64,000 nt of DNA, from NCBI RefSeq assembly GCF_003018255.1, contig NZ_CP027440.1; one strand, 5' to 3'. The notes under the pieces were generated by a model. The model ran no database searches. It was given only the letters and a program-made list of their open reading frames with translations, and was not told the origin of the DNA. This DNA is from Escherichia coli. Its GTDB lineage: Bacteria > Pseudomonadota > Gammaproteobacteria > Enterobacterales > Enterobacteriaceae. The position numbers and the translations under genes are program-made. Below, piece after piece: positions 16,041 through 20,432 of this stretch; the stretch's first letter is position 1; every line of letters starts with the position of its first letter.

Positions 16041-16301
16041 TTACTTATAAATTACCGCAGTACCGCTTAATTTATTGTTGTTGGTGGCAGAAGTGATGCT
16101 GTATCCACTCGCCCCAGCTGCCGCAGCTTTCTCAGCCAGTTTCGCTTCCAGGGCATCGAGGGTGGATGCGCCATCGGCAGAAACCACGCCGATTTTATTC
16201 ATGTTCTGTGCCTGGGATGCCGTTACCGGTTCCGCGGCAAACACGCCAAATGACAGAGTTGAAAGAGCCATAGCAGCAACAACAGTATTGATAGTTTTCA
16301 T
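16041..16301 (-). CDS. ybiJ: DUF1471 (YhcN/YdgH family) small periplasmic protein
   Basis: 86 aa with signal peptide; C-terminal ...GTAVIYK; paralogous to the ORF at 20172-20432. Confidence 0.85.
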   Translation of the reverse strand: MKTINTVVAAMALSTLSFGVFAAEPVTASQAQNMNKIGVVSADGASTLDALEAKLAEKAAAAGASGYSITSATNNNKLSGTAVIYK

Positions 16302-16565
16302 AATTAATCTCTCGCAGGTGATTTTTGTATAAGTGACGTTGTTTCGTCGATGTGATGAGTATCACGTTTTTTTTCGAGAGATAAAATCGAAGAGAATTGA
16401 CCGCCTTGTTCAAATAAATTGATTGATATCTAACATACTGATAATCCATTTATTTGTTGAACTTATGGACTTGTTTTATGCAGCGTGGCAGTCACGACAG
16501 CGTTAAAGGCACGGAATGCCACGCAAAATACAAATTATACTCGCTATACATCCCGCCAGTTGTAG

Positions 16566-16832
16566 TTAACGTAACTGGCTGTCTTTCGAACCTCTGCGAT
16601 TATATCCTGTATAAGCTGGTTTTTGTAAATCTTTCTCCTGCTGACAATGAATGCATAAGCGCACACCAGGAATGGCTTCCCGACGGGCTTGCGGGATGGG
16701 GGCTCCGCACTCTTCACATTCATACAGGCTTTCGCCACGCGGAATTTCACCCCGAGCGCGGGCAATCGCATCTTCAATTGTACTGTTGATCTGTTCGTTG
16801 ACGGCGTCATCGTTAGCCCAACCGGATGCCAT
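16566..16832 (-). CDS. ybiI: DksA/TraR-family C4-type zinc-finger protein
   Basis: 88 aa; CEECGAPIPQARREAIPGVRLCIHCQ four-Cys motif. Confidence 0.85.
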   Translation of the reverse strand: MASGWANDDAVNEQINSTIEDAIARARGEIPRGESLYECEECGAPIPQARREAIPGVRLCIHCQQEKDLQKPAYTGYNRRGSKDSQLR

Positions 16833-16905
16833 ATCGTCCTCCCCATATCAATACTTGTACAGTTAAGTGTAGCTAATATAGGGACGAACTCGGGCAGTTC
16901 AAGCG

Positions 16906-17583
16906 TCAGATCTCCGACCATTCCCGCAGCAGATTATGATAAAGATTGAGCAGCGACAGGATCTCTTCACTTTCGCCGTAGCGGCTTTTCAGCGACTGAA
17001 TATTGTTGTCCAGTTCAAACAGCATGGCGCGCTTTTTATCATCGCGGATCATCGACTGGATCCACATAAATGATGCCACTCGTACGCCGCGGGTTACGGG
17101 TGTCACGCAATGCAGGCTGCTGGAGGGATACAACACCAGATCGCCTGCCGGAAGTTTTACCCGATGTTGCCCGAAGGTGTCATTAACGACCAGTTCGCCG
17201 CCATCGTAGCTTTGTGGATCGCTTAAAAACAGCGTGGCAGAAAGGTCAGTGCGCATCCAGCCGTTTTGTGGGTGACTGCGTACTGCGCCATCCACATGAA
17301 AACCATAGGTTTCATTGTTCTGATAGCGATTAAACAGCGGCGTGGAAAGGGTACGCGGCAAGGCCGCGGCAAAGAACAAAGCATGTTGGTTAACCGCGTT
17401 CAGCACCTCATTTTGCAGGGCGGCGTATAACGTGCTGCGGGTGTCTACCTGTTGATTGTTCTTAACTTGCGCACCTTGTGCGCCAGTGGTGACGCGTCCA
17501 TCCACCCATTCGGCTTGTTCCAGTTGTTCGCGAAAACGGGCGACGTCCTGTGGCGATAGCACGCCGGGAATGTGGTACATCAT
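16906..17583 (-). CDS. ybiX: PKHD-type Fe(II)/2-oxoglutarate-dependent hydroxylase
   Basis: Start placed at the internal MMYHIPGVL (225 aa); immediately downstream of fiu in the same orientation. Confidence 0.85.
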
Positions 17584-17624
17584 ACAAGTTCTCCAAAAAG
17601 TGGGGCCTGCGCCCCACATCTCAA

Positions 17625-19907
17625 TCAGAAATGCATATTGGCCGTGAGCAAGAAGGTTCTTGGCTCGCCCGGGTGATAACGGTAGCCGCTCTTGTTGATT
17701 GAGGCGACGTAATCGGTATCAAACAGGTTGTAGACGTTTAGCTGGAAGTCGAGATTGCGATTAACCCGATACCCCAGTTTAGCGTCGGCGACCCAATAAC
17801 CTTCGGTAAACGCTGGCGTTCCCACCGCGCCGTCAGAACCTTTATGCATACTGCCGATATAGCGTGCGCCCGCACCAACGGAAATATCATCGGTTGCCTG
17901 ATACTGGCTCCATAAGGTAAAGGCGTGCTCCGGGGTATACGGCAGCGATGAGGAACCATCCTGGGCAACATCTTTGCCGTTTTTGATGGTTGCTTTTTGC
18001 TGGGTATAGCCGCCAATCACCTGCCACGCGGGAGTGATATTCCCGGCCACGGATATCTCATAGCCTTCGACGCGTTTCTTACCGTATTGCGAGTAAGTTC
18101 CGTCATCATTTTGCTCAACTTCATTTTTGATATCAGTACGGAACAGCGCGGCGGTGAGCAACAGGCGTTTATCCAGAACCTGCCATTTGGTGCCAATCTC
18201 GCTGGTGTTGGCTTTTTGCGGTTTAAAATCGGTGCGGTTGGCACTGTTACCGCTGCCAGACTGCGCAAGGGCGAAGTTGTTGCCGCCCGGAGGCTGCTGG
18301 GAAACGGCATAGTTAATATAGACATTGCCGTTTTCCGTCAGGTGATACAGCGCCCCGGCTTTCCAGTTCACCAGATTGCCCGACTTGGCGGTATCGACGG
18401 TGGTGACCGGAGAACCTTTTGCCACGCCAGCAGGGCAGGTGATGGCACCGCGTCCGCTGCCGCCGCAGGCGGTGGCACTGTCATATTCAGTATGATAATT
18501 ATCCAGACGGATCCCGCCGTTCAGCTCAAAATCACGGGTGATTTGCAGCGTATCGAAGGCGTAAATTGCGAAGGTATCCGTCTGACCATTGGCGTTTGCG
18601 CCGTTGCGCGTCAGGCCGCCGGGATGAATGCTGCTGTCAGGATGATAAATATTTACCGCAGGTAACGTCACCGGATTAACGCCGTAGTTAGTCTGCGTTT
18701 CACGGGTAAATTCCACGCCGGTACTGACATCATGACCGATAGCGCCGGTATAGAACGTCGAGGTCAGGTTGGTCTGGTTGGTGAGAATTTTATTACTCAC
18801 ATCTTTAGTATTCGCCGTGCGTGACCAGGTCCAGCTATTCACATCGCTGGTGGGCTGGGTAATATTCGACGCCCCGCCCATAATCGCCGTCATCAGGTAA
18901 TCCTGCTTCACGCGCGACCAACGGGTAGTATTGCGAATGGTGGTGTTATCGTTGATGTCGTGCTCAAAACGCATGGTAGCGGTGTCGGTGGTCGAATCGT
19001 CGTAATCGGAATCCGTGCCGTAAAAGTTATGAGTATCAACTTTTCCGGAATGATTCAGAGCCGCTGTTCCCGCAGATGGGGCAGAATAACCCGGTAAACC
19101 GATAGTCGGAATGCCGCCGTCTGGCGTGTTGTGCTGGGTGACATGCAGATAATTAAGATACAAACGATTCGCTGTACCAAGGCCAAAAGCGACAGAAGGG
19201 GCGACGCCGTAACGCTCATTTTTGACTTTGTCGCGTCCGGCATCGTGCGTTTTTTCGCCCATTACATTCAGGCGCACCGCAGTGGTATCACCAATGACCT
19301 GATTGACGTCCAGCGTGCCGCGGCGGAACCAGGCGCTGCCAATACTGGCGGAGGCGTCAATGCCGGAATCATTGCGCGGCTGTTTGCTGATCATATTGAT
19401 CGAGCCTGTCGGCGCGCTGCGCCCGTAGTCGGTGCCGGACGGCCCTTTAATTACTTCGACCTGCTCGGTATTGAAGGTGTCGCGCGAGACGCTGCCGATA
19501 TCGCGAATGCCATCGATATAAATACTGTTAGAGGTATCGGCACCGCGCATATAAATGGCGTCGCCAGTGGTGGAGTTACCGTTCTCACCCGCAAAAAACG
19601 CACCCACGCCGGGGACGTTTTTGAGCGCGTCGGTAAGGTTGGTTGCACCCTGATCTTTAATCACTTGTTCAGAAATCACCGTCATCGTGCGGGTAGTATC
19701 CGCTACCGGACGCGAGAATTTCGGATCGGCAGATTGTTGTGGCGCATAAAGCGAAGGCGTTGATGCTTCGACAACCAGCGTGTCATCCGCGTTAGCTTGC
19801 CCTTCGGCAGCGAGTGCCTGCGCCACAGGCGTAATACCAATACAAAGACCGGCAAAGAACGTGAGCGAATGAAATTGTCTGGCAGGGAAATTGCGATTGT
19901 TTTCCAT
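17625..19907 (-). CDS. fiu: TonB-dependent outer membrane receptor for catecholate siderophores
   Basis: 760 aa; signal peptide, TonB box region, C-terminal aromatic residue (…TANMHF) typical of beta-barrel receptors. Confidence 0.92.
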
Positions 19908-20011
19908 TTTGCAGGTGACTTTTTCTTATATGGTGAAATTTTCACTGTCACGAGAAAGCATCTCTGCGGATGCGATGCCACTGTTAATCCCGTGATAGCG
20001 TCCGTGCAAGT

Positions 20012-20037
20012 GATAATAATTTTGATAAGCATTATCA
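20012..20037 (-). promoter_or_regulatory. Fur box in the fiu promoter region
   Basis: gataataattttgataagcattatc resembles the Fur consensus GATAATGATAATCATTATC; lies ~105-130 bp upstream of the fiu start. Confidence 0.55.
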
Positions 20038-20171
20038 CTTGGCGCGATTTTCTATCACCCATTGCGCGAAAAAGAAATACATTTATTTACATTGCGTTCA
20101 TATTTGATGTTTTTTGCTTACAAATTGGACGAAAACTGCATCCAGAGGCGAATGCAGTTACGTTGGTGGGG

Positions 20172-20432
20172 TTATTTGTAGATGATTGCAGTACCGAACA
20201 TCTGGTCATTTCCGCCTGCGGAATTAATGACATAACCTTTCGCGCCTTGTTCGCGCGCTTTTTCTGCCAGTTTATCCTCCAGATCGCTTAGGTTTGATGC
20301 GCCAGTTGCCGAAACGGTACCGGCGGGCCGTAGTTGACCACTGTCCAGGTTACTCATCGGTTGCGCGGCATAAGCCGTGAGAGAGATTCCGCTCAGGACG
20401 GTGGCAATCAGTAGTGTGAGGCACTTTTTCAT
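20172..20432 (-). CDS. mcbA: DUF1471 (YhcN family) small periplasmic protein, colanic-acid/biofilm associated
   Basis: Start at internal MKKCLTLL (86 aa, signal peptide); C-terminal ...GTAIIYK; the ORF-track N-terminal extension was not used. Confidence 0.85.
   Translation of the reverse strand: MKKCLTLLIATVLSGISLTAYAAQPMSNLDSGQLRPAGTVSATGASNLSDLEDKLAEKAREQGAKGYVINSAGGNDQMFGTAIIYK

Follow-up and report, generated by a model that had tools for sequence, protein, structure and literature searches.

Organization of the DUF1471 genes ybiJ and mcbA and the fiu-ybiX pair between rlmF and ybiB in Escherichia coli and its relatives

Described relatives and the E. coli locus

Members of the DUF1471/YhcN/BhsA-McbA family (PF07338) are described as periplasmic proteins (Eletsky et al. 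2014, PMC4092069, among other sources) and as restricted to Enterobacterales. YbiJ and McbA (YbiM) were already named among the E. coli members (PMC4092069), and we find no difference on this point: both are full-length, single-domain proteins of ~86 aa with a putative N-terminal signal sequence and a ...GTAxIYK end. Neighbouring paralogues have precedent in the family. Eletsky et al. listed the adjacent pairs yjfN-yjfO and yhcN-ycfR-like; mcbA/ybiJ was not among them, and the conserved near-adjacency of these two genes reported below is a small addition to that list. In E. coli, yjfN and bsmA are likewise neighbouring, same-strand DUF1471 paralogues and thus a precedent for local duplication. 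However, the directly adjacent yjfN and bsmA have a spacer of 148 nt and are only ~30% identical, whereas mcbA and ybiJ are 47% identical and, in most genomes, have one to three unrelated genes between them.

The genes that lie between mcbA and ybiJ in E. coli also have described counterparts. The CciT-CciO and PiuA-PiuC pairs, like E. coli fiu-ybiX, comprise a TonB-dependent catecholate receptor followed by a 2OG/Fe(II) dioxygenase, and such pairs are co-conserved across Proteobacteria (bioRxiv 10.1101/2024.10.16.618771). In published work, fiu is a core member of the Fur regulon, and fiu, ybiX and ybiI belong to the Fur-1 iModulon (PMC10164565, PMC4145685).

We analysed a stretch of 64,000 nucleotides (hereafter the window) in which five genes of interest lie on the minus strand. 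These are mcbA (20172-20432), encoding an 86-aa DUF1471 periplasmic protein; fiu (17625-19907), encoding the TonB-dependent catecholate siderophore receptor (plug PF07715 and beta-barrel PF00593); ybiX (16906-17583), encoding the PKHD-type 2OG/Fe(II) hydroxylase that partners fiu (PF13640 and PF18331); ybiI (16566-16832), encoding an 88-aa DksA/TraR-type C4 zinc-finger protein (PF01258, 47 bits); and ybiJ (16041-16301), encoding the second 86-aa DUF1471 periplasmic protein. An earlier note, made from the sequence alone, had placed fiu, ybiX and ybiI between two 86-aa proteins, and the open reading frames bear this out, as does the RefSeq annotation of an identical sequence in NZ_AP045067.1, a 100% match to an E. 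coli chromosome, in which ybiJ and mcbA flank the other three genes. The window is core E. coli chromosome, and at least 80% of the region is carried by 5,416 of 5,426 complete genomes. RefSeq, EcoCyc-type annotation and the literature already covered all five genes, the paralogy within DUF1471 and the control of fiu by Fur.

We consider it likely, with a probability of roughly 0.85, that the rlmF-ybiB interval is made up of three transcriptionally and evolutionarily separate units (ybiJ, mcbA and fiu-ybiX) and that the position of the iron genes between two paralogues is a historical accident rather than a functional module. Cross-genus comparison identifies the iron genes as an independent unit, and the arrangement is therefore ordinary; the result is of little consequence and leaves the understanding of these genes unchanged.

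Paralogy of YbiJ and McbA

YbiJ and McbA align over their full length without gaps (40 of 86 residues identical, 47%; BLASTP E 3e-23), in agreement with the earlier description of them as related proteins of the same length and orientation. The shared features it had pointed to are present as well: the C termini read ...LSGTAVIYK and ...MFGTAIIYK, and a KLAEKA core is common to both. Each matches PF07338 over residues 34-86, with scores of 64.8 bits for YbiJ and 70.6 bits for McbA (cut-off 27), and both match the solved structures 2NOC and 2MA4 at the sequence level (E 5e-5 to 5.5e-4). Their N termini (MK..., a hydrophobic core and A-x-A, in the contexts VFA/AEP and AYA/AQP) resemble a putative Sec signal peptide. 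The similarity is not confined to this segment, in which 9 of 23 residues (1-23) are identical. In the mature region (24-86), 31 of 63 residues are identical (49%; BLASTP E 9e-19), and the Smith-Waterman score of 143 compares with 25.8 +/- 5.0 in 2,000 shuffles (z = 23); within the Pfam core (34-86) the count is 30 of 53.

This similarity ends at the coding sequences. The 300-nt flanks of ybiJ and mcbA, upstream and downstream, align at shuffle level (z = 0.5 and 1.2), such that the comparison of flanking DNA proposed in the earlier note yielded no shared sequence outside the genes. The spacers at 16302-16565 and 19908-20171 are both 264 nt long, a coincidence of length between sequences that show no similarity. 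Nucleotide identity between the two genes by codon position is 60/61/32%, indicating saturated third positions. Because the flanks are unrelated and third positions have saturated at 32%, nothing marks a recent or segmental event, and the duplication is ancient.

Relatives of YbiJ and McbA came almost exclusively, among named matches, from Enterobacteriaceae genera, with one metagenome-assembled genome labelled only 'Proteobacteria bacterium'; this distribution agrees with the literature on DUF1471. YbiJ orthologues are 74-86% identical across Enterobacteriaceae. McbA orthologues were found in Escherichia, Citrobacter, Leclercia, Huaxiibacter, Enterobacter, Lelliottia, Pluralibacter and Pseudescherichia. 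Between E. coli and Citrobacter, McbA (62-77% identity) is less conserved than YbiJ (80-86%), making it the faster-evolving of the two; its distribution is also the patchier. Matches in Kluyvera were set aside, as their similarity was to the signal peptide alone.

Gene content and regulation across Enterobacteriaceae

To describe the interval in other genomes, we compared 27 syntenic loci from other Enterobacteriaceae, 24 of which came from a search of genome contigs. In 21 of these 24, representing at least eight genera, ybiJ has mcbA upstream of it, on the same strand and within 0.1-8 kb. Across the 27 loci, the presence of mcbA does not depend on that of fiu-ybiX, all four combinations being observed, and of the 21 loci with both DUF1471 genes only 5 have fiu-ybiX between them. 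E. coli and four Citrobacter have the order mcbA-fiu-ybiX-ybiI-ybiJ. The iron pair is missing from E. albertii, C. werkmanii, C. youngae ATCC 29220, Enterobacter and Lelliottia, which have mcbA-ybiI-ybiJ, and Pluralibacter has mcbA-ybiJ. Klebsiella michiganensis and Pseudocitrobacter lack mcbA and have fiu-ybiX-ybiI-ybiJ, and Salmonella and Superficieibacter have ybiI-ybiJ only. The rlmF-ybiI gap varies further: Klebsiella, Pluralibacter and Superficieibacter have a flavin reductase gene there, and Pseudescherichia has a 7.6-kb insert.

fiu and ybiX, which follow one another on the same strand with a 41-nt gap, are always co-present or co-absent in the syntenic loci, and their absence has left scars. 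What is left in E. albertii is a remnant of 35-38 nt from the 5' coding region of fiu and the 3' end of ybiX, and the final ~24 nt of ybiX survive in C. werkmanii and C. youngae ATCC 29220, fused directly behind the mcbA terminator. E. albertii and some Citrobacter have thus lost the pair from this site by deletion. An apparent remnant of the ybiX 3' end in Salmonella (ATGGTCTGAAA), picked out by eye, had no BLAST support. No locus in the sample has a tandem mcbA-ybiJ pair that is unambiguously ancestral; the one in Pluralibacter retains a weak trace of the ybiI-ybiJ spacer (E 0.003) and so may be secondary.

With Pluralibacter as the one exception, ybiI adjoins ybiJ in all syntenic loci examined, including those of Salmonella, Enterobacter, Lelliottia and E. 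albertii, where fiu-ybiX is missing from this site. It is therefore evolutionarily tied to ybiJ, not to fiu-ybiX.

The Fur site follows fiu. A promoter-like site with an overlapping Fur-box array lies upstream of fiu at 20006-20058 on the minus strand (-35 GTGATA and -10 GATAAT, 20058-20031; core 20018-20036). The core is the best match in the window to the Fur consensus GATAATGATAATCATTATC (15 of 19 positions), no site in the window having three or fewer mismatches, and further overlapping matches start at 20006, 20012 and 20024 in a 6-nt register. The Fur-box-like site that had been noted between fiu and mcbA (20012-20037) is therefore real. This predicted Fur box overlaps the -10 element, and in this respect the locus is no different from the known E. 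coli fiu-ybiX operon. Citrobacter and Pseudocitrobacter keep the same box ~110-135 nt upstream of fiu, and the fiu-less loci compared lack it. Upstream of ybiI, no Fur box with up to five mismatches was found in genomes without fiu, so that there is no evidence for a Fur site of its own; in Pseudocitrobacter, which has fiu, a weak five-mismatch match occurs there. The independence of the units is incomplete in E. coli, where ybiI and fiu-ybiX are co-expressed.

The signals around ybiJ and mcbA are distinct. ybiJ has its own promoter/leader, ~140 nt of which are conserved in 10 genera. As read from the sequence, it includes (16352-16422, minus strand) a candidate YhaJ-type box, TCA-N7-TGA, at 16410-16422 and a palindrome, GTGATACTCATCAC, at 16352-16365 that occurs once per locus in 23 loci. 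In published work, YhaJ binds and activates the ybiJ promoter, and the positions mutated there (-120, -112 and -111) fall inside the candidate box (PMC5031710). The most strongly acid-induced genes include ybiJ, bhsA and yhcN, and mcbA is nowhere mentioned in the same paper (PMC10746267). For ybiM/mcbA, papers citing Zhang 2008 report repression by McbR. Downstream of ybiJ, the 3' untranslated region (15900-15996, minus strand) is the equivalent of the K-12 sRNA ZbiJ (b4814), the K-12 sequence being identical over this stretch, and a terminator scan places a strong intrinsic terminator at its end (stem 15929-15908 followed by a T-run). An Rfam scan of 15000-21500 gave a single sub-threshold match, to this region (15900-15994; 22 bits against a cut-off of 49.5), which is not meaningful. 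A terminator-like hairpin lies just 3' of mcbA, between it and the fiu promoter (20129-20163, minus strand; predicted fold -15.4 kcal/mol, z = -3.8), and comparable hairpin sequence is visible in Enterobacter and Citrobacter spacers.

Origin of the arrangement

We propose the following history. ybiJ and mcbA, two of ten DUF1471 paralogues in E. coli, probably encode small Sec-exported periplasmic alpha+beta proteins with published roles in envelope stress and biofilm responses. They derive from an ancient and probably local duplication that preceded the Enterobacteriaceae radiation and was about contemporaneous with the split from BhsA; the local origin and the order of events are what we infer from the comparisons above. 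Each gene now appears to have its own promoter and terminator, and in published work the three units answer to different regulators: ybiJ to YhaJ and to acid induction, fiu-ybiX-ybiI to Fur, and mcbA to McbR repression. The Fur-repressed fiu-ybiX pair fills the mcbA-ybiI gap in some lineages and has been deleted in others. Co-expression of ybiI with fiu-ybiX in E. coli (Fur-1 iModulon) may reflect read-through from the fiu promoter.

The earlier note had suggested that a local duplication took place around an iron-uptake module. That the two paralogues arose locally is plausible, given the same-strand proximity in 21 of 24 loci and a neighbour-joining tree (500 bootstraps, 63 aligned columns) that weakly favours YbiJ and McbA as sisters (59%, with the alternatives at 20% and 18%). 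Support is 100% for each of the orthologue clades of YbiJ and McbA and 83% for the grouping of YbiJ, McbA and BhsA. A YbiJ-like gene of Yersinia alsatica (52% identity) cannot be used to polarise the tree, as its surroundings are not syntenic with the ybiJ, bhsA or yhcN loci.

By pairwise score, McbA is no nearer YbiJ (71.2 bits) than BhsA (69.7 bits), with YbiJ-BhsA at 70.9 bits, and bhsA is located ~330 kb away in K-12. McbA could equally stem from the BhsA lineage and have landed beside ybiJ by chance. We nevertheless judge it unlikely that McbA came from the BhsA (YcfR) lineage, or was horizontally acquired, and was inserted beside rlmF independently of ybiJ, with the proximity of the two being coincidental. 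The near-equal scores, the McbA-BhsA grouping in 18% of bootstraps, the patchier distribution and faster evolution of McbA, the variable rlmF-ybiI gap with its flavin reductase gene and 7.6-kb insert, and the observation that the closest YbiM relative in Salmonella is YcfR (47% identity; Eletsky 2014, PMC4092069) all speak for such an insertion. Against it, the position and strand of mcbA are constant in at least eight genera, so that any insertion would be ancient; base composition is ordinary (44-58% GC in 500-nt windows across the region); and local duplication is documented for the family (yjfN-bsmA in E. coli, and yhcN-ycfR-like in Salmonella as described in PMC4092069).

It is decidedly improbable that a local duplication produced the DUF1471 genes around a pre-existing iron module, with the copies and fiu-ybiX-ybiI forming one evolutionary, and perhaps functional, unit. 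The equal length, shared orientation and gap-free alignment of the two proteins would fit such an event, as would the co-expression of ybiI with fiu-ybiX, the status of YbiJ-McbA as the commonest of the three groupings, and the five-gene order common to E. coli and four Citrobacter species, which must therefore predate their split. However, mcbA and fiu-ybiX occur in all four combinations, the iron pair lies between the paralogues in only a minority of the loci with both, ybiI stays with ybiJ, the flanks of the two genes are unrelated, and BhsA is as near to each as they are to one another. In addition, the Fur box is limited to fiu-bearing loci, mcbA and ybiJ have distinct published regulators, and DUF1471 is confined to Enterobacterales, a narrower range than that of fiu-ybiX-type pairs, which occur throughout Proteobacteria. 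The iron-uptake part of the earlier proposal is thus not supported.

That mcbA...ybiI-ybiJ forms a functional envelope unit, in which RcsF-like DUF1471 proteins act on or with outer-membrane beta-barrels such as Fiu, the DksA/TraR-type YbiI couples them to transcription and recruitment of fiu-ybiX brought ybiI under Fur control, is very remote because of the independent gain and loss of the genes, their differing regulators and the location elsewhere on the chromosome of the paralogues usually co-reported with ybiJ in stress responses.

Reading the interval as separate units has two modest by-products. The content of the rlmF-ybiI gap varies in Enterobacteriaceae, with mcbA, fiu-ybiX and the flavin reductase gene coming and going independently. 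Fiu is also an entry route for catechol-cephalosporins such as cefiderocol, and because it admits these compounds, the natural loss of fiu-ybiX in E. albertii and some Citrobacter could affect intrinsic susceptibility.

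The ybiJ-mcbA locus

The 5.5-kb stretch around ybiJ and mcbA is E. coli chromosome, is 100% identical to NZ_AP045067.1 and is carried, over at least 80% of its length, by 5416 of 5426 complete E. coli genomes. Its five genes, named from the RefSeq annotation of the identical sequence and assigned domains by Pfam scan, all lie on the window's minus strand; hcxB and ybiB are the neighbours at one end, rlmF and ybiO those at the opposite end. Two of them, ybiJ (16041-16301) and mcbA (20172-20432; also ybiM), encode 86-aa DUF1471 proteins (PF07338), McbA being annotated as periplasmic. 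Between them lie ybiI (16566-16832; C4 zinc-finger protein, zf-dskA_traR), ybiX (16906-17583; PKHD-type hydroxylase, 2OG-FeII_Oxy_3 and PKHD_C) and fiu (17625-19907; catecholate siderophore receptor, Plug and TonB barrel). Every element of the stretch is already named and published, including the paralogy of YbiJ and McbA (bioRxiv 10.1101/2025.02.11.637708).

The earlier note had described the two proteins as related and bracketing an iron-uptake cluster with a Fur-like site, and these observations held in every detail. A gap-free BLASTP alignment spans the full length of YbiJ and McbA at 47% identity (E 3e-23), and their likeness extends past the signal peptide: over residues 24-86, the mature part, 31 of 63 are identical (E 9e-19; z = 23 relative to 2000 shuffles), and 30 of 53 are shared in the Pfam core. 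The coding DNA is 51% identical, with 60%, 61% and 32% identity at codon positions 1, 2 and 3, and synonymous sites are therefore saturated. Similarity of the flanking DNA, compared over 300 nt on each side, scored no better than shuffled sequence.

The ybiI-ybiJ spacer (16302-16565) and the mcbA-fiu spacer (19908-20171) are both exactly 264 nt long but unrelated in sequence, and the equal length is a coincidence. The mcbA frame stays open upstream to an ATG giving 134 aa (20172-20576, minus strand), and McbA versions of 104, 114 and 134 aa exist in public databases. These longer forms are probably start-site miscalls; a GAGGA precedes the 86-aa start at 20432, and that length agrees with the orthologues.

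Origin of the two DUF1471 genes

When YbiJ and McbA were compared all against all with the K-12 paralogues BhsA (YcfR), YhcN, YjfN, BsmA, YjfY, YahO, RclB and YdgH, BLASTP bit scores were 71.2 for YbiJ-McbA, 70.9 for YbiJ-BhsA, 69.7 for McbA-BhsA and 62.8 for YbiJ-YhcN. The first three being so alike, the neighbours are not uniquely close, in agreement with Eletsky et al. 2014 (PMC4092069), who name YcfR as the nearest relative that YbiM has in Salmonella, at 47%. We built a neighbour-joining tree (63 mature-domain columns, 500 bootstraps) from YbiJ and McbA orthologues of nine further genomes, extra YbiJ orthologues and whole-family representatives at the 50% identity level. Both orthologue clades received 100% support and YbiJ, McbA and BhsA together 83%; a YbiJ-McbA sister pair was favoured but not resolved (59%, with 20% for YbiJ-BhsA and 18% for McbA-BhsA). 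The tree suggests that the three lineages parted at about the same time, ahead of the Enterobacteriaceae radiation.

The earlier note had also proposed a local duplication around the iron module. An ancient local duplication is plausible, and duplication of this kind is how the family is documented to have expanded: yjfN and bsmA are adjacent, and in Salmonella yhcN adjoins a ycfR-like gene (PMC4092069). Nothing, however, ties that duplication to the iron module.

Gene order and loss of fiu-ybiX

A YbiJ scan of one genome per species yielded 30 loci, 24 of which share the rlmF...ybiB frame; Salmonella and Klebsiella michiganensis loci were added by two exact-protein look-ups. Between rlmF and ybiB, the order mcbA-fiu-ybiX-ybiI-ybiJ occurs in E. 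coli and four Citrobacter, and mcbA-ybiI-ybiJ in E. albertii, C. werkmanii, C. youngae ATCC 29220, Enterobacter and Lelliottia. K. michiganensis has flavin reductase-fiu-ybiX-ybiI-ybiJ, Pluralibacter flavin reductase-mcbA-ybiJ, Superficieibacter flavin reductase-ybiI-ybiJ and Salmonella ybiI-ybiJ only; Pseudocitrobacter, compared from fiu rightwards, has fiu-ybiX-ybiI-ybiJ, and in Pseudescherichia 7.6 kb of other genes separate mcbA from ybiI-ybiJ. All four combinations of presence and absence occur for mcbA and fiu-ybiX; ybiJ is present throughout and ybiI almost throughout, and only 5 of the 21 loci with both DUF1471 genes hold the iron genes between them. The rlmF-ybiI gap itself varies in content. 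A flavin-reductase-like gene sits there in three loci (L022 8475-9110, L031 8522-9136 and L038 3457-4071, in their own coordinates) that belong between them to Klebsiella, Pluralibacter and Superficieibacter, and Pseudescherichia vulneris has uncharacterised genes spanning about 7.6 kb (L020 1810-9448).

Some absences left scars. In E. albertii (L008 6777-7005), mcbA and its 3' flank are followed by 35-38 nt left over from the 5' part of the fiu coding sequence, and after these by the final bases of ybiX. In C. werkmanii and C. youngae ATCC 29220 (L015 9287-9440; L016 9289-9440), the last ~24 nt of ybiX are fused directly after the mcbA terminator, a 3.2-kb deletion relative to C. youngae CCUG 30791, which, unlike ATCC 29220, keeps fiu-ybiX. 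The pair has therefore been lost at least twice; no scar was detectable in Enterobacter or Salmonella. These comparisons indicate that Escherichia and Citrobacter, at the least, inherited the five-gene order from their common ancestor. As Fiu is an entry route for cefiderocol, natural fiu-ybiX deletions may bear on susceptibility.

Regulatory elements

No other site in the window matches the 19-nt Fur consensus as well as the Fur-like site between fiu and mcbA (20018-20036, 15/19). Further matches phased by 6 nt overlap it, as is usual, and it also overlaps a promoter-like sequence upstream of fiu (-35/-10, 20058-20031). In E. coli, Citrobacter and Pseudocitrobacter a Fur box precedes fiu by ~110-135 nt, and none was found in the loci without fiu; the box is part of the fiu-ybiX unit and not of mcbA. 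The core Fur regulon includes fiu, and the Fur-1 iModulon fiu, ybiX and ybiI (PMC10164565); ybiI goes evolutionarily with ybiJ, yet is co-expressed with fiu-ybiX in E. coli. Throughout Proteobacteria the receptor and dioxygenase genes are conserved together (bioRxiv 10.1101/2024.10.16.618771), a much broader range than DUF1471 has, which the literature limits to Enterobacterales. We conclude that fiu-ybiX stands apart as a pair of genes under Fur control, which some lineages have and others have lost by deletion. The second-best Fur-consensus match in the window is GATGATAATAAATATTATC (51522-51540, 4 mismatches).

The DUF1471 genes have elements of their own. A terminator-like hairpin follows mcbA (20129-20163, minus strand; -15.4 kcal/mol, z = -3.8), and mcbA is repressed by McbR/YncC according to papers citing Zhang 2008. 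The ~140-nt region upstream of ybiJ is conserved in ten genera and contains a YhaJ box, TCA-N7-TGA (16410-16422), inside which the mutated positions -120 and -112/-111 (PMC5031710) map; a strong terminator follows the gene (15929-15908, minus strand). Among the top acid-induced genes are ybiJ, bhsA and yhcN, in a study that leaves mcbA unmentioned (PMC10746267).

The conserved ybiJ upstream region also holds a near-perfect palindrome, GTGATACTNATCAC (16352-16365, minus strand), about 50-65 nt upstream of the start codon. It is found once per locus at the same position in 23 loci, whereas the bhsA and yhcN loci lack it, and may be an operator or else a piece of the core promoter. Directly after the ybiJ stop, K-12 and another E. 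coli (locus L007) carry an 89-nt REP-like element that the window strain lacks. The ybiJ 3'UTR (15900-16040, minus strand) matches the K-12 sRNA ZbiJ (b4814), with the ZbiJ part identical to K-12, and the 20-aa ORF ybiE; the paralogue bhsA likewise has an annotated 3'UTR sRNA, BhsB.
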